The notes beneath the pieces were generated by a model, which was given only the letters and a program-made list of their open reading frames with translations, was not told the DNA's origin and made no database searches. This document shows, in pieces, positions 21,192 to 54,401 of a stretch of 62,487 nucleotides of DNA. The number at the start of each line of letters is the position of its first letter. Positions within the stretch are counted from its first letter, which is position 1. A program made the translations under genes and the position numbers. The DNA comes from a virus, in IMG/VR virus record IMGVR_UViG_3300045988_093152, positions 1 through 62,487 of that record; one strand, given 5' to 3'.

Positions 21192-21211
21192 GATGTTTAA
21201 CCTCCATTTTG

Positions 21212-21246
21212 AAAAAAGAAAGAGCCGCAGATTTCTCCACGGCTCT
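21212..21246 (-). terminator. rho-independent terminator, conserved hairpin family
   Basis: AGAGCCGTGG-AGAAAT-CTGCGGCTCT plus a T-run. Confidence 0.7.
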
Positions 21247-21267
21247 AGCTTTAATGATTAGCTCGTA

Positions 21268-21486
21268 TTAACGTTCCATAAAGTCCGTATCTACTAAATC
21301 ATATTCCACATCATGGTCGTTGGAATTGCCGATAAATATCGAAAACGCCTTATCAAGGTCGGTAAAGTCGCACACTGCAATTTCATTATTTTTGAATGCA
21401 GGTGAGCCAACCAGTGCCTCGCACATGCGATCACGAAATTTAGCCATTTCCTCAGGATTTTTGCATTTGATGTTCAAAACGATCAT
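21268..21486 (-). CDS. hypothetical protein
   Basis: ATG at 21486 after TTGGAGG. Confidence 0.55.
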   Translation of the reverse strand: MIVLNIKCKNPEEMAKFRDRMCEALVGSPAFKNNEIAVCDFTDLDKAFSIFIGNSNDHDVEYDLVDTDFMER

Positions 21487-21523
21487 AGTTTCGTACCTCC
21501 AAAATATAATTCTGAGACTGATC

Positions 21524-21552
21524 ATCTCATAAAGCACCATGAAAATTTCGCG
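21524..21552 (-). promoter_or_regulatory. P-motif, copy 11
   Basis: CGCGAAATTTTCATGGTGCTTTATGAGAT. Confidence 0.5.
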
Positions 21553-21777
21553 TCAGATCACATCAGCCTTCTTGAGAATATCCATCAGCTGCGCCTTGGT
21601 CATCTCTGCATCCACTACAAGATGGATTTTCAACTTCTGCTCTTTTTCGCTCCAGTTCGCCTGAACCTCGCCCAGCTGTACCTCTGTACCGGGTAACTGC
21701 TTTTTCAGTATCTTGTTGATGACCTGCGAGATGATGCGGCGCAGAAAACTCGACCGAATCAGCATAATGTCCTCCAT
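21553..21777 (-). CDS. hypothetical protein
   Basis: 74-aa ORF, TTGGAGG SD. Confidence 0.55.
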   Translation of the reverse strand: MEDIMLIRSSFLRRIISQVINKILKKQLPGTEVQLGEVQANWSEKEQKLKIHLVVDAEMTKAQLMDILKKADVI

Positions 21778-21806
21778 AATCGTTCAACCTCCAAAAATAA
21801 AAATGA

Positions 21807-21876
21807 AAAAGAGAATGGGCCTCGAACCCATAACCTCCACAATAAAGTGGCGCTCTACCATTTGAGCTATCTCCTC
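21807..21876 (-). tRNA. tRNA-like gene with canonical acceptor, D- and T-arms but a shortened, non-canonical anticodon arm (identity not assignable)
   Basis: GAGGAGA-TA-GCTC-AAATGGTA-GAGC-G-CCAC-TTTATT-GTGG-AGGTT-ATGGG-TTCGAGG-CCCAT-TCTCTTT. There are 20 nt where a normal tRNA has 22-23. Its 5' end lies inside P-motif 4 and a T-run follows. Confidence 0.55.
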
Positions 21877-21901
21877 CATAAGGGAACATGAATTTTTCGC
21901 G
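21873..21901 (-). promoter_or_regulatory. P-motif, copy 4 (drives the tRNA-like gene)
   Basis: CGCGAAAAATTCATGTTCCCTTATGGAGG. Confidence 0.55.
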
Positions 21902-21902
21902 T

Positions 21903-23388: not shown

Positions 23389-23793
23389 TTACTTTCTATC
23401 CGTAAAGCCTCTCTTGATCTCATGGAGACCATCGTTCATTGCTCTGGAAAGCGGCGCTACACCGCCAGCCTCGCAGATCGACCAGTATACCGTCGTGCCA
23501 ATCGTTCCCAAAAACGTCAGGCAGCTGATGCCAAACTTCGCCCACTCAATGCGCCGTGCCTTCGCAGCCTTCTCCTGATCGTTGATGACCTCCTGGCCCT
23601 TCCGCCGTTCCTCATCCTCTTTCAGGTTCTGGTCGCTCTCCTGCGCCTCGCTCTTGATTTGCATCTCGTACAGCTGCAATGCCGCCTTCGCTGTCTTTTC
23701 GTAATCCTCCGTACCCGGTTCCAGATCCTTCAGCTTGGCGAGCGATTGCTTTGCCGCTTCCTTCAGCAATTCTTTGTTTTCATAGTTTTCCAT
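23389..23793 (-). CDS. coiled-coil protein with C-terminal TM segment
   Basis: ATG at 23793 within GGAGAAAATCAAAATGGAA. TM segment FGISCLTFLGTIGTTVYW. Confidence 0.55.
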   Translation of the reverse strand: MENYENKELLKEAAKQSLAKLKDLEPGTEDYEKTAKAALQLYEMQIKSEAQESDQNLKEDEERRKGQEVINDQEKAAKARRIEWAKFGISCLTFLGTIGTTVYWSICEAGGVAPLSRAMNDGLHEIKRGFTDRK

Positions 23794-23828
23794 TTTGATT
23801 TTCTCCTTTACAAAGTAATTTAGAGTTT

Positions 23829-27440: not shown

Positions 27441-27812
27441 TCAAACAGCCCGGTCTGAAACGTCGCTCAAAATATCATAGCCCAATATCTGGGAGCCCTT
27501 TCTAAATATCATATTACCATAGTCCGCGATCCAATTGCAAGCCCATTCTTCAGCATCGACCCAGTAGGCCGATTTCACCATGCGGTGCAGCTCTGGCAGC
27601 AGACCGTAACTGACTAAGGTAACATGGCCCAGCTCATGGATCAGCACCCTTCGCAGCTTTTCCCCGCTCAGTCCTCGTGCCACAAACACATGTTGCAGCT
27701 TCGGGTCTGTCACGGCAATGGTCCTGCGTCCGGTGCGATCCACAAGGTATGGGCTGTCCGGGTCTACAAAACGGATGCGCCAAAGCCACCCGTTTACCGT
27801 AAACCGTTCCAT
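27441..27812 (-). CDS. ImmA/IrrE-like zinc metallopeptidase
   Basis: HExxH motif in LIHELGHVTL, 123 aa. Confidence 0.6.
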   Translation of the reverse strand: MERFTVNGWLWRIRFVDPDSPYLVDRTGRRTIAVTDPKLQHVFVARGLSGEKLRRVLIHELGHVTLVSYGLLPELHRMVKSAYWVDAEEWACNWIADYGNMIFRKGSQILGYDILSDVSDRAV

Positions 27813-27818
27813 TTTGAA

Positions 27819-28811: not shown

Positions 28812-28835
28812 CTGCAAATCCTCCTTCAAATATCA

Positions 28836-28870
28836 ATAAGAAAGGAGCGCCAGTCTCCCAGCGCCCCTCC
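28836..28870 (-). terminator. rho-independent terminator
   Basis: GGAG(GG)GCGC-loop-GCGCTCC plus TTTCTTATT. Confidence 0.5.
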
Positions 28871-28885
28871 ATTTTGAAATTTCGC

Positions 28886-29864: not shown

Positions 29865-30086
29865 TTAACGACCTCTGAAGAACCGCATTGCCTGTGCGTA
29901 GGCCTCCTCGGGTGTGATCCCGTAGCTCTCGCACAAGTTCCGGGCGATCTGCTCACCCGTCGCGTCGTCTCCATTTTGAATTGCCGACAGCGCGTTGTGT
30001 GCCATCGGGTTGTTTCGCAGCTGTGGGTTTCCCGCCAGTAGACGGTTCACAAAGTTCATTCTCGGGTTATTCGGCGTTTGGTTCAT
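29865..30086 (-). CDS. hypothetical protein
   Basis: 73-aa ORF overlapping the end of the upstream gene. Confidence 0.5.
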   Translation of the reverse strand: MNQTPNNPRMNFVNRLLAGNPQLRNNPMAHNALSAIQNGDDATGEQIARNLCESYGITPEEAYAQAMRFFRGR

Positions 30087-30534
30087 GGTTCAGTCCCTCT
30101 TTTCCGTGTTTATAAGGTTCTTTGCGGTAAGGTCTTGACTTTTTCTGTACCAAACGCTTGATCTCGTCCAGCTTGTCCCGGATCTCTGCCAGCTCACCAT
30201 TTTCAGGCGGGTTCTCAGCGGTCTGGGCCATGGGAACGAAGGTCATGGTTTCGATTTTCCCGACATTCGATAGATACTTCACATACACACAGCTCATGTC
30301 ATCTTTCGGGAAGATGGCCACCGTGCCGTTGTTGGGCACTTCATTGGGGCGTACTTCCTGGATGTCATGGATCATTCGTCCAGGGATGGCCTGTACGAAC
30401 TGCTGCGGATATCCATTTTGAATTCCCACCCCCTGCATCTGTTGCAGGTTCTGATTGTTTTGCCATCCTCCCAGAGCAGCTGCCTGTTGAGGAGTAAGGC
30501 TCTGCGGAGGATATGCACCATAATACTGGTTCAT
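30067..30534 (-). CDS. Q/N-rich hypothetical protein
   Basis: 155-aa ORF, AAAGGAGG SD. Confidence 0.6.
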   Translation of the reverse strand: MNQYYGAYPPQSLTPQQAAALGGWQNNQNLQQMQGVGIQNGYPQQFVQAIPGRMIHDIQEVRPNEVPNNGTVAIFPKDDMSCVYVKYLSNVGKIETMTFVPMAQTAENPPENGELAEIRDKLDEIKRLVQKKSRPYRKEPYKHGKEGLNHEPNAE

Positions 30535-30561: not shown

Positions 30562-30819
30562 TTACTGATTGTTCTTGGCCCTCAGCTCCGCATAGAGCTT
30601 GTCCGCCTCGATGGCCTCCTTGGTGAAGGAGTTGTTCTTCCACCAGTTGATAATGGCCACCACTACGGTGATGAGGGTGCTTACCACCTGCTGGAGCTGC
30701 TCGTTGTCAATGGGCAGCGGGCTTTTACCAAAGGCGGTCAGCAGACTGTTCAGCAGCGCCACAAGCAGGCAGATGGTTCTCGCCCACGTTGCGGCGGTCA
30801 CGGTCGTGTTCTGTTCCAT
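30562..30819 (-). CDS. holin (phiLC3 / LL-H-like family)
   Basis: TICLLVALLNSLLTAFGKSPLPI...INWWKNNSFTKEA signature. ATG at 30819 after GGAG. Confidence 0.75.
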   Translation of the reverse strand: MEQNTTVTAATWARTICLLVALLNSLLTAFGKSPLPIDNEQLQQVVSTLITVVVAIINWWKNNSFTKEAIEADKLYAELRAKNNQ

Positions 30820-30833
30820 TTTGAAATCTCCTC

Positions 30834-31163: not shown

Positions 31164-31786
31164 GCTCCTTTCACACAGGTAAGGCCGGCTTTCGCAATGA
31201 TGCCCGGGTAATCCTTGTAGACATGGTTCATGTCCACCACGCCGCTCACGCCAGCCACATTGCCCTTGGAGCTGTACTGCCACATGCCGTGCTTTCGGGT
31301 CGGACGCTTGTTTCGGTAGTCCGCCAGCCACAGGTCAAACTCGTTCAACTGCCACATATTCAGGTTGTAGTCGGCAAAGTTCGAGTAAGTGTACAGGATC
31401 GCGTACAGCCCCCACTTTTCGATCTCCCTGAGCTCCATTTTGACAAGTTTCGTCAACTCGGCTGCGGGCAGACCTTTCAGACGGGGGTCCTCCACGTCCA
31501 TAGCAATGGGCAGTTCAAAGCTCTTTCCTTCCAGGCAGGTCTTGAGCAGGTTCAGCTCCTTCTTTGCCATGCCTTCCGTTACCGCAACGGTGTAAGCATA
31601 TACGCCAACCGGCAAACCTACAGATTTGGCCCCGGCATAGTTCGCTTCAAAGCACGGATCGACGTAGAGCTGCCCGCTCTTGGTGGAAACTGCACGGATC
31701 ATCACGCCACCTACTTTTCCGCTGGCCTTGACTTTTTTCCAGTCAATGGTTCCCTGCCAGCGGGAAACGTCTATGACATCAAGCAT
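31160..31786 (-). CDS. GH25 muramidase endolysin
   Basis: DVSRWQGTIDWKKVKASG..VMIRA and catalytic-type DVE in PIAMDVEDP. Confidence 0.85.
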   Translation of the reverse strand: MLDVIDVSRWQGTIDWKKVKASGKVGGVMIRAVSTKSGQLYVDPCFEANYAGAKSVGLPVGVYAYTVAVTEGMAKKELNLLKTCLEGKSFELPIAMDVEDPRLKGLPAAELTKLVKMELREIEKWGLYAILYTYSNFADYNLNMWQLNEFDLWLADYRNKRPTRKHGMWQYSSKGNVAGVSGVVDMNHVYKDYPGIIAKAGLTCVKGA

Positions 31787-31943
31787 TGCCCTGCTCCTTC
31801 AGTTTCTCTGCCAGCTGGGTGCACAGCTTCTCGTATTCTTCTTCGGTCAGGCGGTCGTTGGCAAAGAAGATATCCAGCTTCTTTTGCATCCGGTTGGTCT
31901 TGCCGCGTTCGATCAGGCGTGCACAAGTGTTGTAAAGTTCCAT
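31779..31943 (-). CDS. small XkdX-like protein, tentative
   Basis: ATG at 31943 within GGAATCAAAATGGAA, 54 aa, downstream of the fibre genes. Confidence 0.4.
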   Translation of the reverse strand: MELYNTCARLIERGKTNRMQKKLDIFFANDRLTEEEYEKLCTQLAEKLKEQGNA

Positions 31944-32060
31944 TTTGATTCCTTTCTGCTCACGTTCTGCATGAGCCATCTTAATGTAAAAAAATCGCTC
32001 ATCAGCATTCCTTTTCAGTGGGCCAATAAGCGAAACGATACAAATGGTCTGACCCGCCTC

Positions 32061-32441
32061 TTATGTCTCCGGCGTAACCCCCAGCTCCAGCAGGGTCAAC
32101 CTGTACTCCTGATCCACCATCAGGCTGTCGGTGTCATTCTGGGCACTTTGCAGGGCGGTCAGTGTTTCGGGCAGGGTGTCCACGGCTTTCTGCTTTGCCG
32201 CTGCCTTTTGCTGGGCCGCTTCCTGTGCAGCCAGCTCTTCGGCGGTCGGTGGCTGGGGTACTTCCCCGTATTCGTACACCTCGTACTCCGCCCCGCATAG
32301 CCGGATGCCCCAGTAAGCTTCCCCGGGCTGTGCGTTTTGGTTGTGTGCGTTCACCGCAGCCTCGATCTCGCTGTAATCTGCCGGGGTGCCGTCAGTCTCG
32401 GTCGGTACCTTGTACCCGGGACGGATCGTTGCTTCTTCCAT
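32061..32441 (-). CDS. hypothetical protein of the tail-fibre region
   Basis: 126-aa ORF, AAAGGAGAG SD. Confidence 0.55.
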   Translation of the reverse strand: MEEATIRPGYKVPTETDGTPADYSEIEAAVNAHNQNAQPGEAYWGIRLCGAEYEVYEYGEVPQPPTAEELAAQEAAQQKAAAKQKAVDTLPETLTALQSAQNDTDSLMVDQEYRLTLLELGVTPET

Positions 32442-32464
32442 TTTGAACTCTCCTTTCCGGGTGC

Positions 32465-34537: not shown

Positions 34538-34568
34538 TGATATTCTCAACCTCCTCCATTTTGAGCCC

Positions 34569-35909: not shown

Positions 35910-35965
35910 GGCTCCTCCCTCCTTTCTGCATCCATTTTGAAATTTCGTAAAGCTGACGGAGAGGT

Positions 35966-37441: not shown

Positions 37442-40400
37442 CGGTTGTTCCTCCGGTTGATCTTCCCCAGTCCCTCGTCCACGTCGTTGATGATCTCGCC
37501 AACCAGTTTCCGGCCGTTCATCTGGACCTTCATGTTGGCCACGGCACGGGCAATGCTGTCGATGTGCTCGCCCAGTGCCTCCACGCTCGAAACAATGTCG
37601 GCGTTGGGGTTTGCCTTCTGGTCAGCCTTGTTGTCCTCTTCCTGCTGAGCCTTGGTCACCTCGGCTCTGCGCACCACGTTGGCGGCAAGGCCTGCGGTGC
37701 GCTCTGCATTCAGGGCGACCGTGCCGTTCTGGAACAGGGTGTCGTTCAGCCAGTCCACTCCATTTTGAACGTCGCTCATGTCCACTACGGGCTGGATGCT
37801 GGGCTCATACTCGAAGTCGTCGCTGGCAATGTCGCCCACTCGCTGAGCCAGATCCATCATGGTGGAAAGGGCAGTGTTGCTCACGTCCTGTACGCCCTGC
37901 ACCACGGAGTCGGTCTCGTCGGTGATGCCCTGCGCCAAACCAAGGCTCAGGTATTCGCCAATGCCCGCCATCACGCGGCTGGGGGAATGGATGCCAAAGA
38001 AGTCGCAGAATCCGTCCACGATACTGCTGCCGAAGTCGCAGATGGCGTTCCACACCGTACCCGCCGTGCCTGTAATGCCCTGCCACAGGCCGGAGATCAG
38101 ATTCCCGCCAACCTCCACCAAGCCCTTGAAGCCGTTGCTGATCCAGTCCCACAGGTGCGAGAAGGCATTTCCCAGCCAGTCAAAGAACCCGCTGAAGAAA
38201 TCACCCACCTTGTCCCAGTTGGCGATCAGCAGTCCGCCGCCCACAACGGCCGCACCAATGAGCCAGCCTTCGGGGCCAATGGAGCCCAGCACACTCATCA
38301 GAGTGCCGCCCAGTTCTCCCAGACCGCCCAGTAAGCCGCCGGAGCCGGTGATCATCTCACCGATGCTGCCAAGGCCGCCCAGTGCTTCTCCCAGCAGCCC
38401 CGTGCCGCCCGTGGCAGAGCCCAGCAGGCCGCTCATGTTGCCCAGGATGCTGCCAAGGTTCTTGGTCGCGCCGGTCACCTTGACCACCTGTCCCATCACC
38501 TTCAGGGTGCCGCCGCCCTGTGCCAGTTTGTTGAAGGTCAGCATGGTCTTTCCCAGATTCATCATGGTCTGTCCGAACTCGCTGCCCATAAAGTCCAGCA
38601 CGGTGGTAATGCCGCCGGTCACTGCCCCGCCCCAGTCACCGCTCACAAGGGCGGTAATGGTGCCAATAAGGTCGGTGATCACGTTGGTCACGCCGTCCTG
38701 GGTGGCCACACCAAAGGCTCTGCTGAGCTTCGCGGCCATTTCCGGGGCGCTCTTCTGCACCTGTGCCCAGACGCTGTTGAAGCCCTCCTGAATTGGCCGC
38801 CAGTTCTTCGAGATGGAGTAGCCCAGCTGCATCATCATCCGCTTGCCGGAGTCGTCCAGCTCAAAGGCATCCGCCAGATTTTCCGCAAAGCCCACAAAGT
38901 TGTACTGTTCGCTTTGCAGGTCTGCCAGTGCATCCAGTGCGGTCTCGCTGTTCTTGCCAAACTTCTTCACAGCCTCGTCGTACTTCAGCTGCTTGTTCGT
39001 TACCTTCTTCAGGCTGTAGCTCATGCTGTCCAGTGCCGTGCCCACGCCGATGATGGCGGTCATGGTGCCCTGAGTAGCTGCCTTCCGTGCCTGGGCGCTG
39101 TCGGCTCCGTATTGTTCCACCGCAGCCTTGTAAGCGTCCTCCCGGCCCGCAAGGTCCCCGTCGCCGTAGAGCTTGGCCAACATGTTCTGCCGGTTGGTCA
39201 CCAGCTTCTCCTGCTTTTCCAGGTAGGAGACCTTGCTGTCGTAGGCATCCAGCTGGGCCTGATTCAGCTCGTTGATGAGCTTCTGTTGTTCGGTCTGTGC
39301 CTCCAGATACTGCTGGTAGGCCGCCTGGGTCTTCTGGCTTGCCTCACCGAACTCGTTTTTGATGGCGATATAGTCCTTCTCGGCGGCCAGCAGGATCTCC
39401 GCCTGGTTCTTGATCTTCCGGTTGATGTAGTCGATCTTCTTGTTGGACTTCTCGGTCACCTCGGCGCTGTCCTCATACAGGGCGCTCCACAGTTCGTATT
39501 CGTCCTCCGCGGTCTTGGCATCGGTCTCGTACCGCTCCTGAATGACCTTCAGGATGCTGTCCTGCTTGCTCCTCTGAAGCTCCGCAAGGGTCTTCTGTTC
39601 GCTCAGCAGGGTGCCGTATGCGTCCTTGGTCTTGCTGTTGTTCGCGCCCACCTTGGCCAGCAGGGTGTCGTACTGCTCTTTCGCAATGGCCACCCGTTTG
39701 GTCTGGAGCTCGATCTCCCTTGTCAGACTCTCGGTCTTTTTGGTGATGAGCTCTTCCACCGTGGCCGTGTCACCGCCCGTCACTTCCCACAGCGCGTATT
39801 CGCCGGTGGCGTTGGACATCTCGGTCTTGTTGGCCTTCAGCTTGTCGGAGAATGCACTTGCCAGCGTGTCTGCCAGTGACTTGCCGGATTTGGAAGCTTT
39901 GGATTTCGTGGAACTGGTCGGGGTGACTGCGTCGGCCACAGCGTCCTGTGCTTTCTGCCACCAGTTACCGAGGATGCCATACGGATCGTTCAGTGCCGTC
40001 TGGGCATCCGCGTTTCCCTGCTTGGCATTTGCAATTTCGGATTTTGTTGCGTTCCGGCTGCTGCCCGCTTTCTTCAGGCCGGTTTTGCCGGGGATGACAA
40101 TTGCATCATCCATTGCATCGCTGAACTCATCCATCGCGGTAGACAATCCATTTTGATAAATTAGATTGCCAGGGTGCAGGGTGCTCAGCTTGAACGCATT
40201 GTAGAGCTCAGGCATCTTCTTCTGGATCGCAAGGGTCGTCTCGTCGATAGCCTGGAGGAAGCCGTCCTTCATCACCAACGCGCCAGAATAGCTTGCCTGC
40301 CGGAGTTCTTCCTGTTTTTGCTTGTCACCGATACCCAATAGTGCGCCCTCGAGAATGTTCTCGCTGTCGCTTGCTGCCAGGTCACTGGGCGAATGGATGC

Positions 40401-43400
40401 CCCAGAATGTCGTAAATACGCTTCGGATGGAAGAAGCCACGTTCAGCATGTTCGCCTTGGCCTGTGCCAGTGCACTCGGGTCGGCAATGCCTTCCGCCAG
40501 TCCCACGGTCACATACCGGCCAAGTTCTGCCATCACCCGGGAGGGAGAATGAGAATCGAAAGTCGTTTTGCTGGTCTCAATGACCGCGTTCGCAACTTCT
40601 TCTGAAGCATCTGCGGCTTCCTTCTTACCGTCAAGCTGGCCTTCTTTCATGCCCTCGCTTGCATTTTTACCGATGCCTGCAAATGCCTGATAAATGCCCG
40701 CCATCATGGAATCGCCGTTTTTCAGCTCATCCAGAATATCCGCAAAAGGCAGCACGAATGTCTGGGCCGAAACGCCCTTATCCTGCCCGCCCCAGTTTTT
40801 CGGGTCGAGCGGGTTGTGGCTCCCTGCCCAGGTCGTGAATTTCGTCCAGAGGTCGTTCAGTGCTGGCTCGATTTTCTCCCAGATATACTCTGTCAGGCTC
40901 ACCACCGTATCGATCACAGTTGTGCCCAAAACATACAGCGCCTGTCCGATCGAGGGGGCCGCCAGAATGATTGCGTCGCAGATAGCCTTGATGATTTTGG
41001 CGATTGAAGTCACCAGACTGCTTGCCACCTCGGCCAGACCCTGGAAAACACCGGCGATAAATTCGACCAGCGTCCATGCCAGTGCCTTGATGCCGTTCAA
41101 AAATACCTGGAAATTCAGGCCGTTCAGCAAACTTAGGCTGGATGCCAGATTCTGTACAAAGTTTGCGGCAGAGCTCAATGCCAACAGTGCACCAAGGCTC
41201 AGGGCCAGTGCACTTAGCGAGAGGCTTAATGCCACAATGACCGGCGTTACAGGCGAAAGTATGACTGCCGCGCCACCCAGCACCACAAAAGCACCCACAA
41301 TGGTCAGCAGTCCTTTACCAATTGCTTCCCAGCTCAGATTTCCAAGCCCCTGGAATGCCGGAACCAGAAGATTCACTGCCGCAGCCATCATGGTCAGGCT
41401 GATTGCACTGCCAATCCCCCCTTTCAGGAGGTTCATAGCAGCAACAAAAATAACCAATGCGCCACCGATCGATGTCAGGCCACGAACGACTGCTTCGTTA
41501 TCCATCTCACCGAACTTCGCAACTGCATCCTGAAGGATCTCCATGGATGCTGCCATCAGAACAAAGCCGGTTCCCTTTCCGATGCCGAATTTTACACCGT
41601 TCATGGTTTTAGCAGCGACAACAAGTCCAGCACAAAGGGCCCCTACACCTACAAGCCCTCTTGTAAGTGCACTTGAATTAAGCCCACTCAATGCTTTCAC
41701 ACTGGAAGCAAGGATTCGGATGCTCACCGCAAAGGCCATCATCCCGGCAGTGCCTTTCGTAAAGCGCCCGCCATCCTTCGAGAGAACTGCCGCAACTGCG
41801 GCCAACTCGAGCATAACACCACCAAGGGCGACCACACTTCCTAGCAGCTTATCAGAGTCAATGGTCGAAATGACTTTCAACGCACCCGAAAGGACCAGAA
41901 CGGCTGCCGAAACTGCCACCATTCCACCGGCGAGAACACTCAGCTTCAGGCTCTGCACGTTCTTCGTCAGCTGGGTCATCACTGCCATCACACCCAGCAG
42001 TTCACCGAACGTAACAGTCAGTGCACCGATCGCAGCACCAAGTCGATCTGCTTTCACCATGGAGAGCACAGCCAGTGAACCGGCCATCAATGCCACAGCC
42101 TTTGCGATCGTCATCAGGGTGTCTGCCTTCTTGGCTGATTTCCACGCATCGATTGCTTCGCCCAGAGATTCGATGCAGTCTTTGATACCGCCGACCACGT
42201 CCTTTGCACTGGAACCGATGGACTTGATGCTTTCAAAGAATCCCTTGATGGAGACCAACATACTGGCTCCCATGCCACCCAGAATAAACTGATTCAGTTT
42301 CTCTGGGTCGAATTCATCGAATGCTTCTTTCGCATCCTGCGCAAGCTGTGCAAAGATCTTGTCCGCAACAGAGCCAAAAGAATAAAGCACCGGAGCAGCC
42401 GCATCCACAAAATTGGTCACCCAAGTACCAATGGTACCCAGCGGGTGAAGCCCTTTCGTGATCTCCGAAGCAAATTCACCGGCAGCCGATGCCGCATCCA
42501 GCAGAATATCGGCCAAAGGCTTTGTCAGGTTCAGAACCCGTGCCACACCAGAGATGATGCCTTCCAGAATATCTTTCCCGACCCGCAAAACAGAGAATAC
42601 GCCCTCTGCGGTTGTCTTGATCTTCTTGGCCGTATCATCACTGATGATAAGCTTCTTTGTGATGCTATCTAGCCATTGTGCAAAGCTCTTGATCTCCTCG
42701 CCTGTCTTTGGCGGGAAAATATCTTGAAATGCCTCATGGATGGGCTTCACTATGGCACTCACTGCATCCATCAGGTTCCACAGGCTCTGCATCAGATGCT
42801 CTCGTCCAGAGAGTTCCCGGATCTGTTTCGAGTATCCTTCCAGATCAAGCGTTCCATTTTGAACCTTTTGATTCAGTTCTTCAAATGCGCTCGCCTGTTT
42901 CTCAATTTCTTCCCGCTCAAGCCCTCGCGCCTTCAATTCGGCATCGCTCAGGGTCAGCATCTTCTCTGCACTTGCCCGTGCTTCATCCAGGCCTTTTTTC
43001 AAAAGATCTGCACTGATGCCTCCCTGTTTGATGGCTTCGCCAAAACTACCTGCATCGGAGATCTGCTTTTCAGTGATCGCACCGGAAGCCAGTGCCACCT
43101 GCTCCATGGTATACGCATACACGTCTGCCTGATTGCCCAGCTCATTTTCAAGCAGTTTATTCCATCCGCTGTTCAGTCCGTCCTTCAGCCGTTCGTTCAG
43201 CGCTTCGATGGGCGGCACAAAGATGTCGTACAGCCGGTTCGCCAGCTCCGTCCATGTGTCGGCGGCCTCTTCCTTGTTGCCAAAGATCGTCTCAAACACG
43301 CCCATCCATTTTGAACTGGCAGCGTCTTTCGTTGAGTCGATGGCCTGTGCGAAGCTGGTGGCCTGCTGGGCGGCGAGAGCGGCGCGTTCTGCCAGCTCTC

Positions 43401-45292: not shown

Positions 45293-45371
45293 CTCCCTGG
45301 GGTGTTTTCATTGAGGCGCTCTTTTCAGAGTGCTCTCCATTTTGAATGTTCGGTCAGTTGTGAGGGCAGGC

Positions 45372-47289: not shown

Positions 47290-47340
47290 CTCTTCTCACT
47301 CCATTTTGATTAGTTATAACTAACTAAAAGGGCTGAAAAC

Positions 47341-47630: not shown

Positions 47631-49415
47631 TTAAGTGGCCCACTCAACGGCCATTGCGCTGAACGGGGTGGTCAGAGCGCCGGAGCAGCGGGTCTCGATC
47701 AGGTACTTCTGCGCGTTGAAGTCGATGTCGAAGTCATCGAACATGGAAACAGCGCCGCCCTTGTCAGCACCCACAGTGTAATCGGCCAGGTTGACAACGA
47801 TAGCGACCAGGTCGCCGCCCTTGGCACCCTTGCGGCCCTCCATCTCGGGCACAGTCACGATCTTTGCAACACGCAGCTTGCGGGCCAGAGCAGCCTCGTC
47901 GGCATACAGCGGGTGGCCGATGCCGTCCTCCAGCAGGAGCATCTCGGTCAGAGCGTCCTCGGTGGTGAACAGGGTCGGAGTGCCGGAGCCGCGGTAGTCC
48001 TTGCGGGCACGGATGATCTGCTTGATCAGGGCCTTGTACTTGTCCTCCACGGTGGTCAGGCCGGTGGTCTTGCACTGAACCTTGATGGTAAACAGGTCTG
48101 CATCATTGAAGACGGGGCGGATGCAGTTCTCATCGATCTTGTCCTCAGAGGCTGCCAGACGGCCATCACCCAGCAGGTATGCCAGAGCCAGCTCACGGTT
48201 CAGCTTCAGGCGCATCTCCTGCTTCAGCCATGCCACAACGTCAAAGCTGGTAATGTCGATCACATCGTCGCGATCCAGCTTCTGCTTCTTGTAGACGGTG
48301 GTGGGGCTGGTGGAGCGGCGCAGCAGGCCAAAGACCTCTTCCTTCTTGAAGTTGCCCTTGATGTAACCCTTGGCGCGAGCATCCTCCTCGGTCAGGTCAG
48401 CAAACATGCTCTTGAAGCGGCTGAACGGGATGTGGTGGACAGCGCCCATGACCACGCTCACCCAGTCGTCGGGCTTGTCGATGATGCGGGGCGTGGTGTC
48501 CAGCAGGTGATCCTCAGGGAACAGCCAGTCGATGTTGTCGATGCTGTGGGCCAGCTCGTCACTGTCCATGCCGGCATCCTCAAAGGCAGCCTTCATGGTG
48601 CCGTGGCTCTTGGCGGTCTTGACCACCTGGTTGATGTCCTCAATGCTGTGCTTCAGCACGGTCTGGTTGGTGTCCTTGTCAAATGCATTGTGCTTCACGG
48701 TATCGTCCTCCTCACCGTCATCGTTGTTGCCGCCTTCCTTCTCTTCCAGGGCCAGGCCCACCAGAGCGTGGCAGCACTCTTTCTGCTCGTCGGTCATGCT
48801 GTTGTAGACCTGTTCGAGCGTCTTGCCTTCGTTCTTTTCGTCCGCCATTTTGGCTTCCTCCTGTGTTGCTTTATCGTCGGTCACGGCATCGCCGCTGTCC
48901 GCACTGTGTGTAAGGTCTTCCAGCGGGTTGCCCTCGGGGTCCATGCCGTGGGTCAGGCTCAGGCCGTCCTCGTTATAGATAAAGGCCTCGCCGCCCTCGT
49001 AGTCCTCTTCGGCACTGTGCTTCACCACCTCGTCGATCAGGGCACCCGGGTTGCATCCGGCCAGCACCAGGCTCACTTCCCGGATAAAGCCGTGCTTCAC
49101 GGTGCTGCCCACCTTCTTCAGGCCGTTGGCAAAAATGGAAAAGGCGCTCAGGTCGCCGCTCTCCACGCACTGTCTTGCGGTCTTGCCGGTGTCGGTGTCG
49201 TTGAATTTGGCATAGCAGTACACGCCGCCGGGCCGGTTCTCCAGCAGGCAGTGGCCGATCACATTGTCCACGTTGGCGTGGTCGTGGTTGTACACCATGG
49301 GCACAACCTTGCCGCTGCACTCCTTAAAGGCATCCTGCGCGATCACCAGCCCGTCATAGCACCGGACGTTCGCTTTCGTCGCCCAGCCGCTGCAATCGTA
49401 GTCAAAATTAACCAT
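47631..49415 (-). CDS. prohead protease (HK97 S78-type) fused to major capsid protein
   Basis: N-terminal VPMVYNHDHANVDNVIGH...SAFSIFANG...REVSLVLAGCNPGA is protease-like. The C-terminal ~400 aa are HK97-fold-capsid-like. ATG at 49415. Confidence 0.75.
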   Translation of the reverse strand: MVNFDYDCSGWATKANVRCYDGLVIAQDAFKECSGKVVPMVYNHDHANVDNVIGHCLLENRPGGVYCYAKFNDTDTGKTARQCVESGDLSAFSIFANGLKKVGSTVKHGFIREVSLVLAGCNPGALIDEVVKHSAEEDYEGGEAFIYNEDGLSLTHGMDPEGNPLEDLTHSADSGDAVTDDKATQEEAKMADEKNEGKTLEQVYNSMTDEQKECCHALVGLALEEKEGGNNDDGEEDDTVKHNAFDKDTNQTVLKHSIEDINQVVKTAKSHGTMKAAFEDAGMDSDELAHSIDNIDWLFPEDHLLDTTPRIIDKPDDWVSVVMGAVHHIPFSRFKSMFADLTEEDARAKGYIKGNFKKEEVFGLLRRSTSPTTVYKKQKLDRDDVIDITSFDVVAWLKQEMRLKLNRELALAYLLGDGRLAASEDKIDENCIRPVFNDADLFTIKVQCKTTGLTTVEDKYKALIKQIIRARKDYRGSGTPTLFTTEDALTEMLLLEDGIGHPLYADEAALARKLRVAKIVTVPEMEGRKGAKGGDLVAIVVNLADYTVGADKGGAVSMFDDFDIDFNAQKYLIETRCSGALTTPFSAMAVEWAT

Positions 49416-50670
49416 TTTGATTTGCAATACTCCTCTCTACGGCATCCCGCCCTGCCGTGATTGTTTTGTTCTGCGCCGCAATTTCCTCACTGCTCTGGCT
49501 GATGTTTGCATTCCGCAGTTCATCTGCCTTGGGGTCCTTGCTGGGTTTCATGCCAATGGCCTGCCGGAACTCGTTGGAGGTCATGATCTCATTGCGGGTA
49601 AACTTGTCGGCCATTTCGGCAACGGCGGAAACAGGGGTCAGCTTGAACGGGTCACGGAAGTACATCACGGATTCCCGGTTCGCCCGGTCGTCCTCGGTCA
49701 GGAACTTCCGCCGGATCTCGTCCACGGCAGCCGCCACAATGGGTTCGATGGTACGGTTCTCGTAGTTGGTCATCACAGCATCGGAAGCAGTACCGTTCAT
49801 GATCTCCGGGGTGATACCCAACTGGCTGTATGCCATGTTGGTCAGGTATTCCACGGTCTTCAAAAGGTTGTTTTCGAGGCTGCGGTTCAGCTGCGTGATA
49901 TGCTCCGTGCCATCGGTGTAGGCAATGCCGTATTTGGAACCGGCGAGCTGCTGTTCGATCTGTGCCCGCCGTTCTTCGGCCTGTTTCTTCCGGGTCTCGC
50001 CCTTCACAACGTAGGGCAGCTGGATGATCAGGTCGAGCTTGCCGCTGCCCACCTGCTCGTCGATCACGTCCATCAGGTTCAGTTTCCGGATCAGGCGCTG
50101 CACCGTGCCGTTGGGCTCGTTCATCACGGCATAGAACGGGTTCTCCACCAGGGCCACCTGTGTCTTCGGCAGGGTGATTTCCTCTTTCCGTCCGGTCCGG
50201 TCGTTGTACACTTCCAGCCGCACGTCGTCCGGGTACCATTCCAGCACCTTTCCCACCCGCATGGATTCGATCCGGGTCTTACCGGTCTTTCCGTCGTAGT
50301 CCACGTCAATCGGCACCAGTGCAATGCATCCCTCATCCAGCATGGAAAGGAACATGTCATATCGCAGTGCCCGGCCCGTCTGGTCCTTGTTGCCGGAAAG
50401 ATTCAGGCAAGAATTAAGGCCCGAATCAACGGTTTCGTCGTAGCGTCCGTTTTCATCGAGCCTTACATGATTGATGGTGATCGCCGCAGCATCCATTGCA
50501 ATGCGGGTGTTGATGGCCGTCATAATCGTCCGGTCATTGGTTCGGTTCAGCCGTACCCGGTCGGGCCGGTTGCTGTAACCTCCCCCAATATAAATTTTTC
50601 CGGGAGGGTCCCGGTTCAAAAACGCATTCCAGGCGTGTCTCAGTCTGGAGCCAAAGGTTTGTGATGCCAT
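49408..50670 (-). CDS. portal protein
   Basis: 420-aa ORF between the terminase region and protease-capsid, GGAGGAAATCAAAATG start. Confidence 0.65.
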   Translation of the reverse strand: MASQTFGSRLRHAWNAFLNRDPPGKIYIGGGYSNRPDRVRLNRTNDRTIMTAINTRIAMDAAAITINHVRLDENGRYDETVDSGLNSCLNLSGNKDQTGRALRYDMFLSMLDEGCIALVPIDVDYDGKTGKTRIESMRVGKVLEWYPDDVRLEVYNDRTGRKEEITLPKTQVALVENPFYAVMNEPNGTVQRLIRKLNLMDVIDEQVGSGKLDLIIQLPYVVKGETRKKQAEERRAQIEQQLAGSKYGIAYTDGTEHITQLNRSLENNLLKTVEYLTNMAYSQLGITPEIMNGTASDAVMTNYENRTIEPIVAAAVDEIRRKFLTEDDRANRESVMYFRDPFKLTPVSAVAEMADKFTRNEIMTSNEFRQAIGMKPSKDPKADELRNANISQSSEEIAAQNKTITAGRDAVERSIANQNG

Positions 50671-50686
50671 TTTGATTTCCTCCAGA

Positions 50687-51238: not shown

Positions 51239-51303
51239 ACTTTACCTCCTTTGCAAATAAAAAACGCACCAGCAATTAAGCTGATGCGTTCAGATGTACC
51301 GTA

Positions 51304-51507
51304 TTACGGAATGATGTCTAAAATAGATTCGCACATCGTTCCTATCTCATTCGGAAAATAATTGTCATCCAACCCCCGATATTCCAGTTCATCGCCGACT
51401 CGTTCTTCGATTTTGGCCCACTCATCGGAAAAATCATCGATTTTGGTATAATCGTAATCAAGCCCCAGACTTTTCAAAAAATCGATCTGTTTCTCGGTAA
51501 GCATCAT
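51304..51507 (-). CDS. putative immunity protein for the upstream toxin
   Basis: 67-aa acidic ORF starting 4 nt after the toxin stop, GAGGTG SD. Confidence 0.5.
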   Translation of the reverse strand: MMLTEKQIDFLKSLGLDYDYTKIDDFSDEWAKIEERVGDELEYRGLDDNYFPNEIGTMCESILDIIP

Positions 51508-51510
51508 GGA

Positions 51511-51948
51511 TCACCTCTTAGTGTATTTTCGGATTGCATTATGCCCTGTTTTCCAGACAGTCGTGACACAGCCATTTTCGGGGTTCACGTTTACCGTAGC
51601 GTGCTGACCAATAAATCGTTGACTCGGCTGTCCCTTCTCATTATACCGCACCTTTATTGTATCAGAGTTTAGCGGCTTTTGCAACGCATCCAGCAATCCT
51701 TCCAGAGTCACCTGTCTGGTAGGGTCTTGGGTACGGTCCAGTGCATGAATTGATAGGCCTTTCACAAGGACACCATTTGAAGCATAAAACGGTTTTCTGA
51801 ATTTCCGAGCAGCTCTCGCTTCGATTGAATATCGGTCATGTGCGAGTTGCTCTTTTGTCCGCCGGACTCCCCATTTCATACCTTTAATGCCATAGTGATA
51901 AAGCTCATCTGGATTTCTCCATCTCCAGATGTTGGTATATTCGTGCAT
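51511..51948 (-). CDS. leader-motif protein with C-terminal RNase-toxin-like (DUF4258/BECR-like) domain
   Basis: N-terminus YHYGIKGMKWGVRR. C-terminus SIHALDRTQDPTRQVTLEGLLDAL...QRFIGQHATVNVNPENGCVTTVWKT resembles the H..R...R.I...V.V.....V.TV pattern of that toxin fold. Confidence 0.55.
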   Translation of the reverse strand: MHEYTNIWRWRNPDELYHYGIKGMKWGVRRTKEQLAHDRYSIEARAARKFRKPFYASNGVLVKGLSIHALDRTQDPTRQVTLEGLLDALQKPLNSDTIKVRYNEKGQPSQRFIGQHATVNVNPENGCVTTVWKTGHNAIRKYTKR

Positions 51949-52015
51949 GGTCAACCTTTCTTGATAATCCTTATATTTTATGATAAACTAAAGCTAAAAA
52001 ATGGGAGGCACTCTT

Positions 52016-52654
52016 ATGAAATTTCCACAAATATCACAAGAACAGGCTGCTTCTATTCTGGATGCCTGCTATGAAAAAGCACTTCATGGTGCCCCAGGGG
52101 CAAAAAGTTGTTCGCAGCTGGCAGAAGAATATCTCGAGAAATATCCAAACCCGATTACAGCAATAGATGAATTTGTGAAATGGCAGATTGGCAAATGCAC
52201 TACTTCCGGTTTTCTCACGAGCCTTGGTGGGATCATAACCTTACCCGTTACGCTTCCAGCCAATCTTGTAACTGTCTGGTATGTTCAATTACGGATGATT
52301 GGAACAATTGCAACCATTTCTGGTTGTGATCCATCAGATGATGACGTACAGGCACTCTCGTATATTTGCCTTGCTGGTGGCTCCGTATCTAAAATATGTA
52401 GAGAGGCAGGTGTTCAGTTCACCAATAAACTTACTGCATCTATGCTAAAAAGAATACCCGGAGCCGTCTTTACAAAAATCAACCAAAAAGTTGGTTTTCG
52501 ATTTGTTACAAAGGCCGGTTCAAAAGGGATTGTCAACATGGCAAAGCTCATACCTCTTGCAGGAGGTATCGTCGGCGGCGGAATTGATTATGTTGGCACC
52601 AAAGTAATGGCTGATCGGGCAATCAAGACATTCCTCTGGAAGAATTACGATTGA
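52016..52654 (+). CDS. EcsC-family protein (moron on the opposite strand)
   Basis: GGGAGG SD. SILDACYEKAL...FVKWQIGKCTTSGFLTSLGG...LVTVWYVQLRMIGTIA pattern recalled as EcsC. Confidence 0.55.
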   Translation: MKFPQISQEQAASILDACYEKALHGAPGAKSCSQLAEEYLEKYPNPITAIDEFVKWQIGKCTTSGFLTSLGGIITLPVTLPANLVTVWYVQLRMIGTIATISGCDPSDDDVQALSYICLAGGSVSKICREAGVQFTNKLTASMLKRIPGAVFTKINQKVGFRFVTKAGSKGIVNMAKLIPLAGGIVGGGIDYVGTKVMADRAIKTFLWKNYD

Positions 52655-52655
52655 T

Positions 52656-54401
52656 TCACTCAAACGCATCCCGGTTCTGTTTCCACGCCACGTAAGCGTC
52701 CATCATGGCAGCCACTGCATCGATCTTCTGATCCTGCCGCTGTTTGTAGAGCTTCCGGTTGCCATTGGTGTCCACCAGTGTAATGCAGTTGCCCATGGCA
52801 AATTGCATCAGCTGTTCGTCAAACAGCAGCTTCCGCTGTTCGCTCAGCTTTTTCAGCTCACCCAGCGGCACGCTTTCGGTCTTTGCACCCTGGATCACTT
52901 TCACAACGCCAAAGGTACTGTTTTCATCGCCCCAGCGCTTCACGAACTCCTGTGCGTTGTAGGGATCGTAGCCAAACGCCCGTACGTCGTACTCGTTCTC
53001 CATGATAAAGTTGTCCAGATCATCGTACACCTGCATCATGTCCAGGACCGTGCCGTCAAACACGAACAGGGTCCCTTCCCGCATAAACTCCTCATACTGC
53101 TGCCGTCTCGAAGCCGGAAGCTGGCTGAGGGTGTAGGATGTGATGTAGTCCCGCGTCTTGACCCCAAAATATCCATTGGACAGCGGAAACAGGAAGGTAA
53201 AGGCACAGAAGTCGTCGCCCATGGAAAGGTCCGCGCCCATGGCACAGGGCATCTGCCAGAAGCTTCTCTTCCTGTGGCATAGGGTCTCCTCGTAGGGGAA
53301 GAAATAGGTGTAGCCCTCCATAGGCAGATTGAAGCGCTTGGCCAGAATATCGTTTCGGGCGCTGGGGGATTTCTCCGCACGCTCCACGTCCAACTGGTAG
53401 GTCTCGTAGCTCACGGTCTTGCCCAGGTTCGGGTTGGCCTTCAGCCACATCTCCGGCTGGCCCACTTCCTCAATGGAGTCCAGCTTGTAGTACCAGATGG
53501 ACACATGGGGGTTGACGTACTCCCCTTTCAGGATGCTCATCAACTCCATTTTGATGTCGTCGCCGCAGCCGTTGCGCACCGTGCCCTCGGAGGAAGCCGC
53601 CACGATGAGATAATTCTCGTTCTTGGCTGCGCCCTGTTCAATGGCACCAATGGGGTCTTCCCGGATGTCGCAGGAGAGCCACTCGTCTACGGTCGCCACA
53701 GTGTCGCGCCGTCCTTGCAGCTTCTCAATGGTCATCGGGCGCACTTCCAGCAGGCTGTTGGTCAAAAAGTTCTCGATGCCCTTCTTGGTGGAAGCCATCT
53801 TCACCCGGTCTGCCTTGGAGCCGGTGGTGTTTTGCAGGCTGCCCTCTGTCATAAACTGGAACACCGGCCCCTTTGCCCGCGCCAATGCGGTGCGGAAGGG
53901 TGCCAGCACCTCCTCGGCCTGTTTCATGGTCGGGGCAGTGGTCAGCTGTTGGGTCGTGGTGGTGTACGCCGTCAGGAAGTAGGCCTGCAAAAACTCAAGG
54001 TACATGGTCTTCGCAGCCGATCGGGTAATGATGAGGTACTGCTTTGTCACCAGCCGCTTTTTCAGCCGCCGGGTCTCGTAGTGTCCACCGCCTCCGTGCT
54101 CATTCGGCACAAAGACGCTCCGCTCCACAAAGTAGTACCACCCGAAGATCTCTTCTGCCCATAGCTTAAAACTATCCAGCATCTTCACGTCGGTGCCGTC
54201 CGTCAGGGTCAGCTCGTCCTCGCAGAACGAAATAAAGCCGTTCACCGCTTTGTCGTCATAGTAGATGCCGGGGTTGGCGATCAGGTCGTCGATCCGCTCC
54301 ATCTCCATGGCGATTTCCCGGCAGACCGGTATTTCACCACGCATCACGGCCTCTCTGAAACGGCCGTAATAGATCGGCGTGGCCGTGTTCGAGAGTGCCA
54401 T
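52656..54401 (-). CDS. terL: terminase large subunit
   Basis: 581 aa. ATPase region ITRSAAKT, nuclease region GADLSMGDDFCAF and DAVAAMMDAY. AGGAGAATTGAAAATG start. Confidence 0.85.
   Translation of the reverse strand: MALSNTATPIYYGRFREAVMRGEIPVCREIAMEMERIDDLIANPGIYYDDKAVNGFISFCEDELTLTDGTDVKMLDSFKLWAEEIFGWYYFVERSVFVPNEHGGGGHYETRRLKKRLVTKQYLIITRSAAKTMYLEFLQAYFLTAYTTTTQQLTTAPTMKQAEEVLAPFRTALARAKGPVFQFMTEGSLQNTTGSKADRVKMASTKKGIENFLTNSLLEVRPMTIEKLQGRRDTVATVDEWLSCDIREDPIGAIEQGAAKNENYLIVAASSEGTVRNGCGDDIKMELMSILKGEYVNPHVSIWYYKLDSIEEVGQPEMWLKANPNLGKTVSYETYQLDVERAEKSPSARNDILAKRFNLPMEGYTYFFPYEETLCHRKRSFWQMPCAMGADLSMGDDFCAFTFLFPLSNGYFGVKTRDYITSYTLSQLPASRRQQYEEFMREGTLFVFDGTVLDMMQVYDDLDNFIMENEYDVRAFGYDPYNAQEFVKRWGDENSTFGVVKVIQGAKTESVPLGELKKLSEQRKLLFDEQLMQFAMGNCITLVDTNGNRKLYKQRQDQKIDAVAAMMDAYVAWKQNRDAFE

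Follow-up and report, generated by a model that had tools for sequence, protein, structure and literature searches.

In the 62,487-nucleotide (nt) virus record IMGVR_UViG_3300045988_093152, taken over its whole length and designated here as the window, the 10-mer TCAAAATGGA is a real, strongly selected and conserved strand-specific word, which may serve as a late-class promoter for an RNA polymerase encoded by the phage itself. The window represents an Oengus-like siphophage of Faecalibacterium in circularly permuted form; its late region resembles that of the Faecalibacterium phage FP_oengus, with a gene order in agreement. All 19 coordinates reported for the word in a preliminary description made from the letters alone proved to be exact minus-strand matches, against none on the plus strand; this 19:0 ratio always designates the coding, non-template strand, nearly all genes of the window lying on the minus strand. 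The copies are confined to one arc of 32.4 kb (21203-53554), the remaining 30.1 kb holding none, and 11 of the 19 lie on a start codon or at most ~65 nt upstream of one, the eight others being intragenic.

Regarding the statistics, TCAAAATGGA is the most over-represented 10-mer of the window (z = 42), with 0.20 copies expected on the coding strand under an order-3 Markov model and a mean of 0.26 copies (maximum 2, both strands summed) in 100 dinucleotide-preserving shuffles. Allowing one mismatch adds 9 sites on the minus strand, two of them at 50666 and 49411, and 3 on the plus strand, for 6.7 expected on both strands together. When synonymous codons were permuted inside each of the 102 called genes (500 rounds), a control proposed in the preliminary description, the intragenic count was not reproduced, i.e. 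1.24 +/- 0.86 copies (maximum 4) vs. 9 observed, and this null is inflated since the codons composing the real copies are retained. These 9 intragenic copies, based on the gene calls made here, include the one at 35931 in a doubtful open reading frame (ORF) of 50 amino acids (aa), and the earlier figure of 8 is the better count. The earlier tally of contexts was also right, namely five start codons, six intergenic and eight intragenic copies, the latter being read as Q-N-G five times, K-M-E twice and S-K-W once, with four of them in the tape measure gene. The use of three frames together with non-coding sites, the codon shuffle that falls short and, at nt 1445 of the tape measure gene, a footprint at synonymous sites (0.98 identity of third positions in the motif vs. 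0.57 in its flanks) bear out the view of a DNA- or RNA-level signal rather than a peptide motif. The conserved core is the 9-mer TCAAAATGG, present in 21 copies in the window including two extra ones at 50666 and 49411; 7 of these 21 are true start codons and several more supply a Shine-Dalgarno sequence. Reverse-oriented partial words of the 10-mer cores are not significantly depleted in the window. The individual copies are as follows.

Copies of the 10-mer and of its 9-mer variants in the window
53545..53554, minus strand: inside the large terminase gene (52656-54401), read I-K-M-E
50666..50675, minus strand: 9-mer variant TCAAAATGGC, whose ATG begins ORF 49408-50670, the equivalent of the portal gene in FP_oengus
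49411..49420, minus strand: 9-mer variant TCAAAATGGT, at the protease/capsid start codon used in relatives
47300..47309, minus strand: intergenic, 21 nt past the hairpin 47353-47331 that follows the capsid gene; its GGAG is the Shine-Dalgarno sequence of the gene starting at 47289
45336..45345, minus strand: intergenic, upstream of the 196-aa ORF 44693-45283, the position of which matches the FP_oengus major tail gene
43305..43314, minus strand: tape measure gene, frame S-K-W; site in 43/64 aligned tape measure genes
42853..42862, minus strand: tape measure gene, frame Q-N-G; site in 60/64; third-position identity 0.98 vs. 0.57 in flanks
40147..40156, minus strand: tape measure gene, frame Q-N-G; site in 18/64
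37759..37768, minus strand: tape measure gene, frame Q-N-G; site in 47/64
35931..35940, minus strand: intergenic, 26 nt past the stop of ORF 35966-36811, upstream of the Shine-Dalgarno sequence GGAGGGAGG
34555..34564, minus strand: intergenic, directly behind a TAA stop; its 3' end merges into GGAGGAGG, the Shine-Dalgarno sequence of the next gene
32437..32446, minus strand: ORF 32061-32441 starts at its ATG, downstream of a Shine-Dalgarno sequence
31939..31948, minus strand: its ATG is the start codon of ORF 31779-31943
31434..31443, minus strand: inside the 208-aa ORF 31160-31786, frame K-M-E; the 208-aa counterpart in relative L075 has Glyco_hydro_25
30815..30824, minus strand: its ATG begins the 85-aa ORF 30562-30819, whose L075 counterpart has Holin_SPP1
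30412..30421, minus strand: inside ORF 30067-30534, frame Q-N-G
29970..29979, minus strand: inside ORF 29865-30086, frame Q-N-G
28868..28877, minus strand: between the stop of ORF 28886-29731 and the terminator hairpin 28870-28841; a copy of a second word, TGATATTT (28828-28835), comes after the terminator
27808..27817, minus strand: its ATG is the start codon of ORF 27441-27812
23789..23798, minus strand: integrase-proximal early region; ORF 23389-23793 starts at its ATG; homologous site at 3724 in FP_oengus
21203..21212, minus strand: early region, merging with the T-tract of terminator 21246-21221 and supplying, as GGAGG, the Shine-Dalgarno sequence of ORF 20991-21191

Across the phage family, the word is kept with the same polarity. 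In the late regions (1.5 Mb) of 69 IMG/VR loci fetched via the tape measure protein at 48-98% identity, 729 copies occur on the coding strand and 0 in reverse, and the 10-mer tops the k-mer list of almost every locus; FP_oengus has 12 coding-strand copies and 1 reverse. The preliminary description had considered that relatives might lack the motif, and all the same they keep it, partly at non-homologous positions. Once copies were clustered by their flanks into 63 independent contexts, a preference for T/A at -1 to -3 and for G at +10 emerged, the information content being limited to ~12 bp, i.e. the 10 bases plus these flanking positions. In the most divergent lineage (L038, L040), TCAAAATGG is retained and the last base is free. 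The site at 53545 is kept in FP_oengus, in L040, which has the most divergent tape measure, and in lineages with a polymerase only ~50-56% identical (L184, L185 and L201). Among 64 aligned tape measure proteins, sites occupy 8 distinct columns, from near-universal (60/64) to lineage-specific, and FP_oengus uses two columns that the window does not; despite this turnover, each gene has 2-5 copies throughout. Because of these alignment columns and of the third-position footprint, the 10-mer is seen to be under nucleotide-level selection, with both positional conservation and turnover. No description of the motif or of promoters of the polymerase family of YonO, from phage SPbeta, was found in the searchable literature.

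The phage polymerase and two companion words

The window encodes a 923-aa protein (58630..61401, minus strand) with a GADFDGD motif and a match to PHROG 4291 (E = 0), annotated as 'RNA-dependent RNA polymerase'. Helix-turn-helix matches are found at residues ~104-130 in the N-terminal part and at 895-921 in the C-terminal part, the latter being sigma-70 region-4-like. A sequence search of the Protein Data Bank returned weak helix-turn-helix matches only, and fold comparison was needed: an AlphaFold model built from a 15-sequence alignment (pLDDT 80.5) was matched by Foldseek to QDE-1 (E 7e-8), to gp62, which is the non-virion polymerase in Thermus phage P74-26 (E 4.5e-7), and to the plant RDR2, with E values ranging from 1e-6 to 1e-8. 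From the motif, the PHROG match and the predicted fold, the phage encodes its own single-chain two-barrel DNA-dependent RNA polymerase, of the class including YonO. This family is large and, with E below 1e-30, numbers 845 clusters at 50% identity, the majority being full length, and the putative recognition helices of both helix-turn-helix regions (ESTVR; SxST) are conserved among members 42-59% identical. In the closer relatives, the polymerase is 86-99% identical even where the tape measure is at 48-70%. The polymerase is proposed as the reader of the 10-mer. A second, virion polymerase fused to the tape measure, as in phage P23-45, was ruled out, the tape measure protein lacking a DxDxD motif and having TMP_3 as sole domain.

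Around the polymerase gene, the 10-mer is found 88:0 in 32 relatives anchored on that gene. More distant loci were fetched by polymerase alignment, giving lineages at 49-77% polymerase identity, and TCAAAATGG(A) is enriched downstream of polymerase genes only 50-56% identical, with no reverse copies; TGATATTT or TTGATATT is often enriched upstream of the gene. Most copies in these distant lineages are starts of the Shine-Dalgarno-spacer-ATG type, and the terminase-internal I-K-M-E copy is present in all of them. In the host, the 9-mer and TGATATTT are absent from the ~10 kb flank of each of 9 lysogens, a small sample from a single host locus, and both are also absent from the F. prausnitzii phages Mushu and Lugh, neither of which has this polymerase. 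From this distribution, the word appears to follow the polymerase family, down to ~50% identity, rather than the host. It is not a general trait of YonO-type transcription, which was considered and rejected: the YonO-dependent late operon of SPbeta has no comparable repeated word, the best one reaching z ~9 with n = 6 (z = 42 and n = 19 in the window).

An unbiased k-mer scan uncovered the second strand-specific word, TGATATTT, with 33 copies on the coding strand and 1 in reverse in the window, its core GATATT being at 82:11. In both the window and FP_oengus, it fills the early/middle arc devoid of the 10-mer, and in the 32 polymerase-anchored relatives, where its ratio is 672:7, it extends ~1.2 kb past the polymerase gene and ends there, the 10-mer appearing from ~3.5 kb. 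Its placement is as flexible as that of the 10-mer, i.e. in the spacer between Shine-Dalgarno sequence and ATG, before the Shine-Dalgarno sequence, after stops or inside genes, five copies being located within the DNA polymerase gene (14563 to 12150, minus strand). Codon shuffling gives 3.2 copies for 19 observed, and the reverse partial AATATC is marginally depleted (10 observed vs. 16.7 expected, P about 0.04). TGATATTT is retained in lineages with ~55% polymerase identity. In L199 (polymerase 52% identical), it is replaced in the middle region (271-10033) by GGTCAAAATG(G/A), with 16 copies of TCAAAATG, and this variant could help to separate the roles of TGATATTT and of the 10-mer. As for its reader, no phage sigma or NusG-like protein was found among ~50 scanned proteins; ORF 1005-1328 gives a weak match to a TFIIB-type zinc ribbon.

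Example copies of TGATATTT in the window
61418-61425, minus strand
58271-58278, minus strand
58248-58255, minus strand
28828-28835, minus strand
20131-20138, minus strand
10252-10259, minus strand

The third word is a bipartite promoter-like element, CGCGAAAWWT-N-yCTTTATGGAgG (CGCGAAAAA block-N-TTTAT|GGAGG), with a fixed spacing of 22 (rarely 23) nt between the first C and the ATG; the consensus drawn from 102 non-redundant contexts reads CGCGAAAaaaaCa...tcttTTATGgag. The element is found exclusively between genes, as a rule behind a terminator and with the next start codon 20-45 nt further on, and is conserved across the whole polymerase family. The one ahead of the exonuclease-polymerase operon is also present in lineages with ~50% polymerase identity.

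Bipartite elements (about 11 in the window) and the tRNA-like gene
21873..21901, minus strand: CGCGAAAAAT-N-CCTTAT|GGAGG, abutting the 5' end of the tRNA-like gene
24954, 24769, 24483, 22517, 21552, 19963, 18812, 5857 and 237, minus strand: other elements (position of the C of CGCGAAA)
62302, minus strand: variant ahead of the exonuclease-polymerase operon
21807..21876, minus strand: tRNA-like gene (Rfam tRNA, 48.6 bits; ARAGORN 21805-21877)

The tRNA-like gene constrains the transcription start of this element. Its first base is the G that follows the TTAT of the element (...CCCTTAT|GGAGGAGATAGCTC), a junction that FP_oengus and further close relatives share; the distant lineage L199 has a tRNA-Val with its 5' end 5 nt past TTAT|G, so that in two lineages tRNA genes start at +1 to +6 from TTAT|GG. 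Since a tRNA cannot start upstream of its own transcript, TTTATGGAGG is no -10 box with a start 6-8 nt downstream, and with the tRNA 5' ends lying at the element, TTTATGGAGG must either contain the transcription start or follow it. From this arrangement, we infer that transcription from the element at 21873..21901 would start at or before the first G of the tRNA. The bipartite layout would then be that of a single-polymerase phage promoter, with a recognition block at ~-24 to -16, an A/T-rich segment at -5 to -1 and initiating G's. A sigma-A promoter was also considered for this element and rejected, the spacing and the -10 match being poor. Out of the 11 positions in the TTTATGGAGG block, 7 (C, A, T, G, G, A, G) have the same base in the 10-mer, the alignment being C-A-A-A-A-T|G-G-A-g for the 10-mer and C-T-T-T-A-T|G-G-A-g for the bipartite element. 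The likeness to an early 'P-motif' pointed out in the preliminary description is thus real, C-W-W-W-A-T-G-G-A-g being common to both. Hybrids, i.e. a CGCGA block followed by CAAAATGG, occur in none of the loci, which makes the 10-mer and the bipartite element distinct classes.

As regards the tRNA-like gene itself, ARAGORN reports it as 'tRNA-???' with a two-base anticodon, and its anticodon loop is not constant in close relatives (ta, ca, ga); a role as suppressor or as decoy may be envisaged.

Promoter and rival readings

The explanation favoured here, to which we give slightly less than an even chance, is that TCAAAATGG(A) is a late-class core promoter of the initiator type, containing the transcription start, for the two-barrel polymerase of the phage. 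The polymerase would be made from the middle region and would recognise the word on double-stranded DNA via its fused helix-turn-helix domains and/or a late factor; the A/T-rich TCAAAAT would be melted and transcription would start at the next GGA(G), as in TATA|GGGAGA of T7. The early/middle bipartite element would have the same initiator core (CTTTAT|GGAGG) plus the upstream CGCGAAAAA block, and the late word, devoid of this block, would fix the bases at -7 to -1 instead. Copies would be placed where A/T-rich sequence is cheap in a tightly packed late region of 55-60% G+C, namely in the spacers of ribosome sites with reuse of the ATG or GGAG, in gaps after stops or terminators, and at synonymous or tolerated codons of long genes. 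Such a flexible placement is expected because a promoter need only lie upstream of what it drives, and the internal copies in terminase and tape measure would raise the transcription of the genes that follow them.

Several observations support this promoter reading. The polarity is strand-absolute, and the word is restricted to the late/lysis arc and the integrase-proximal cassettes. It can replace the bipartite element between a terminator and a ribosome site: the copy at 21203 fills the slot held by that element in adjacent cassettes, the copy at 6070 in FP_oengus is arranged alike, and that at 47300 follows the capsid hairpin. An A/T-rich stretch followed by GGAG, the core common with the bipartite element and the conservation of the word along with a polymerase that has DNA-binding domains point in the same direction, as does the outcome of a k-mer scan of the 26 kb late region, in which no other conserved strand-specific element was found. 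Of the three explanations put forward in the preliminary description (late promoter or initiator, Chi-like or packaging-orientation signal, RNA processing or translation-control site), the promoter is thus the best supported, short of proof; the nucleic-acid nature of the signal stands as well, the Chi-like or packaging option is disfavoured and an RNA-level site keeps a small share.

A good deal weighs against the promoter reading nonetheless. The start position within the 10-mer would be assigned by analogy with the bipartite element. Eight copies lie within genes, a single gene accounting for four, and those in register with an ATG start codon could not serve that very gene if transcription begins at GG. 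The word also stands directly before a terminator hairpin at 28868, at 2441 in FP_oengus, and in L059 and L062, which makes sense only if the phage polymerase ignores such hairpins. Besides, several terminators directly precede a ribosome site without any motif, which weakens the argument from a promoter slot, and the placement equally fits any signal selected for its density. Neither the first 5 kb past the polymerase gene nor the terminase gene as far as 53554 holds a copy. Polymerases that are only ~50% identical go with one unchanged word; T7-group polymerases switch specificity at far higher identity. As TGATATTT acts alike with no resemblance to an initiator, a second reader or another mechanism is needed and, as the bipartite element precedes the operon of the polymerase itself, either autoregulation or another polymerase is required. 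The lack of a comparable repeated word in the YonO-dependent operon of SPbeta counts on the same side. The flexible placement, with three registers relative to start codons and intragenic copies chiefly in the longest genes, fits any signal merely needed on this strand and does not separate a promoter from a signal of the non-template strand acting in elongation.

Such an elongation signal, quite unlikely in our estimate, would be read on the single-stranded DNA of the transcription bubble, or by a factor riding the polymerase, and result in pausing, factor loading or anti-termination, with different words for the middle (TGATATTT) and late regimes; models are ops/RfaH, the sigma-dependent pauses at -10-like sequences and the TTNTTT pauses of Bacillus NusG. 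A word always on the non-template strand, within transcribed DNA irrespective of frame and about as long as a transcription bubble would be expected, and the tape-measure copies, every 0.4-2.7 kb and turning over at a stable 2-5 per gene, suggest a requirement for density over position. Copies before terminators (28868, and 2441 in FP_oengus) would suit anti-termination, enrichment by ribosome sites would suit a pause for ribosome loading, and TGATATTT behaves alike in the other half of the genome. The known signals of this kind, however, occur once or twice per operon and in leaders, whereas the 19 copies here are mostly outside leaders; the copy-free gaps of 5-6 kb at the start of the late region argue against strict spacing, no NusG/RfaH-like or Q-like gene was found among the ~50 proteins scanned, i.e. 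part of the proteome, and the core common with the bipartite element is left unexplained. Distinctly unlikely is an RNA-level operator, whereby UCAAAAUGGA in the late mRNAs would be bound by a phage or host protein for a class-wide control of translation or stability, somewhat as the RegA operators of T4 overlap start codons. Strand specificity would then be automatic, the word contains AUG, true starts and Shine-Dalgarno sequences are frequent among the nine-mers of the window, copies in distant lineages are mostly Shine-Dalgarno-spacer-AUG starts, and TGATATTT is often in the Shine-Dalgarno/ATG spacer of middle genes. Yet the copies occur in three registers relative to start codons, and eight conserved ones lie deep in genes with AUG mostly out of frame, for which a translational operator gives no reason; the 21203 copy begins in the T-tract of a terminator, so that terminated transcripts lack the word, and no candidate RNA-binding protein was identified. 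RNA cleavage at the word is unlikely too, because conserved copies lie inside essential long genes and cutting would destroy essential mRNAs.

Nicking of the coding strand at each copy by a phage nickase, in virion or replicating DNA, is very improbable, even if a short exact one-strand consensus of ~20 copies indifferent to genes and frames is what it predicts, nicks in the non-template strand would leave transcription unblocked and an HNH endonuclease gene is present at 56833-57288. This gene sits beside the terminase, the usual spot of packaging-associated HNH genes; two nickases would have to be assumed, the word being limited to one gene class and the other half having a second word, and enrichment at gene starts (11 of 19 within ~65 nt of a start codon) is not expected. 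The contig ends of the 69 relatives do not coincide with copies; as a nick proxy, they were discarded as uninformative, six relatives ending exactly before a copy at stop-codon boundaries that result from provirus trimming. Hardly credible is a Chi-like or orientation signal read by host machinery, namely AddAB, translocases of the FtsK/SpoIIIE type or the packaging motor. Absolute polarity, over-representation and frame independence do resemble Chi and KOPS, and an enzyme that enters from the end past the polymerase gene would fit the polarity. The host flanks of 9 assemblies (~10 kb, a small sample from one locus) are nevertheless free of the 9-mer and of TGATATTT, Mushu and Lugh have none, 30.1 kb of the 62.5 kb genome is without a copy, and the word is confined to one gene class with a second word elsewhere. 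A 9-10 nt A/T-rich word is also unlike known Chi sites, which are 5-8 nt long and G-rich. What probability remains after these five readings goes to mechanisms other than them.

Taking both words together, a broader alternative, somewhat unlikely in our view, is an 'addressing' code of two strand-absolute words, the 10-mer and TGATATTT, borne by the non-template strand in complementary genome halves. These words would not be promoters but would be read in elongation by the polymerase or one of its partners, or else at the RNA level by class-specific binders, each half of the genome being under a different regime, and this code would be conserved across a gut phage family of more than 800 polymerase clusters at 50% identity. 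If the words are not promoters, such a two-word partition of a phage genome is without clear precedent. If the promoter reading is right, the genetics of Faecalibacterium would gain a useful tool, namely an orthogonal promoter/polymerase pair of an anaerobic Firmicute with a promoter of 10 bp. With three conserved strand-specific words distributed by gene class, polymerase recognition and the temporal switch become directly testable, and the genome offers 19 predicted late starts, a predicted start base and a comparison set down to 50% polymerase identity.

Genome organisation and neighbouring features

Main features of the window
10899-14903, minus strand: primase-DNA polymerase fusion (1334 aa), with an N-terminal primase-like region at residues ~120-450 (DUF5906 in relatives)
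25.6-20 kb, minus strand: cassette-like early region
25787-27007, plus strand: integrase
about 27.4-31.8 kb, minus strand: lysis and accessory genes
37438-44307, minus strand: tape measure
47.6-50.7 kb, minus strand: capsid and portal
52656-54401, minus strand: large terminase
58630-61401, minus strand: RNA polymerase (923 aa)

Exact copies of the integrase are present in Faecalibacterium-type metagenome contigs, in which the prophage lies beside aconitase and threonine-pathway genes, and the circular junction is present in one such contig. The largest non-coding stretch (57919-58331, ~410 nt) separates the polymerase module from the packaging/late genes; it holds two TGATATTT copies around a small hairpin and a second hairpin with the loop CTCAAAATCGG, which resembles the 10-mer, and is a candidate cos site or late-switch region. 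The early cassettes (24544-18335 and 5540-5513, minus strand) are closed by terminator hairpins that are nearly identical and fall into two types (GAGAGCTTACGAGAAATCGTAGGCTCTT and GAGAGCCGTGGAGAAATCTGCGGCTCTT), with ~8 repeats, and three DUF6353 paralogues are found among them. The product of ORF 55059-55655 (minus strand) matches an Acb2/Tad1 hairpin domain (E 4e-6) and could possibly act as a sponge for cyclic-nucleotide defence signals. In the distant lineages, one of the top k-mers is TGCCCACTTT, absent from the window, which forms clustered iterons in both orientations on either side of an A/T-rich segment located 1-3 kb upstream of the polymerase gene, e.g. L184 6669-6925, L236 8664-8935 and L206 7843-8104; these iterons are probably an origin or an operator.

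Comparison with known systems

Single-chain two-barrel polymerases, namely those of YonO, crAss-like and P23-45-like types, are thought to be near the ancestral form of cellular RNA polymerases, and how they find their genes is largely unknown. The present family is carried by Oengus-like phages, which have been reported from as many as 40% of the human gut virome samples (PMC5883640). In phage P23-45, two two-barrel polymerases, the virion gp96 and the non-virion gp64, each have their own conserved motif immediately upstream of mapped starts, and a sequence-specific terminator motif is present as well (PMC10770324), which gives the promoter reading a precedent. Both systems have a phage-encoded polymerase of the QDE-1/YonO class, the model from the window matching P74-26 gp62, the homologue of gp64 (Foldseek E 4.5e-7), and both have several phage-specific words split by gene class and conserved in relatives that keep the polymerase. 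The P23-45 motifs are however at least 15 nt long, lie upstream of mapped starts and serve pre-early/early genes, late genes using the host polymerase (PMC10770324); the word of the window is of 9-10 nt, belongs to late genes and is often intragenic, with one polymerase gene only.

YonO carries out the transcription of SPbeta's late genes, with one mapped start upstream of yonK and a promoter that is undefined (PMC5467207). It belongs to the homologous single-chain two-barrel class and its gene is just upstream of the late operon that it transcribes, the order of genes being as here; the differences are the single mapped start and a late operon without a repeated strand-specific word. In SPbeta (NC_001884; L083/L084), TCATTTATGARGGT occurs twice in the yonN-yonK gap, at 60600 and 60443 on the minus strand, one copy lying between the published primer-extension primers for the YonO promoter (the forward one exact, the reverse one with four insertions); its resemblance to the TTTATGGAGG core is only suggestive.

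Besides these relatives of the polymerase, the arrangement of copies can be compared with unrelated systems. In T5, the phiKMV-like phages and Pseudomonas phage tf, one strand carries nicks, 14 of them in tf at a 9-nt consensus. A short one-strand consensus, a dozen or more copies and indifference to frame are common features, but these sites are defined by physical nicks and exhibit neither partition by gene class nor enrichment at gene starts. Yeast mitochondria use 9-nt start-containing promoters (ATATAAGTA), likewise an A/T-rich word with ~20 copies and a simple polymerase; the polymerase family and the organism being unrelated, the analogy is one of size and logic only. The T7 group offers a parallel in layout, with co-oriented promoters, none antisense, an exact core, a similar density, some intragenic sites and promoter classes that differ in time of use: T7 has 17 promoters in 40 kb, some inside gene 4, and the window 19 co-oriented copies in 32 kb. 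An A/T-rich stretch is followed by GGGAGA in T7 and by GGAG in the window (AAAT|GGAG). T7 polymerase is nonetheless an unrelated right-hand enzyme with promoters of 23 bp, whereas the window would combine a word of ~10-12 bp with a two-barrel enzyme carrying fused helix-turn-helix domains.

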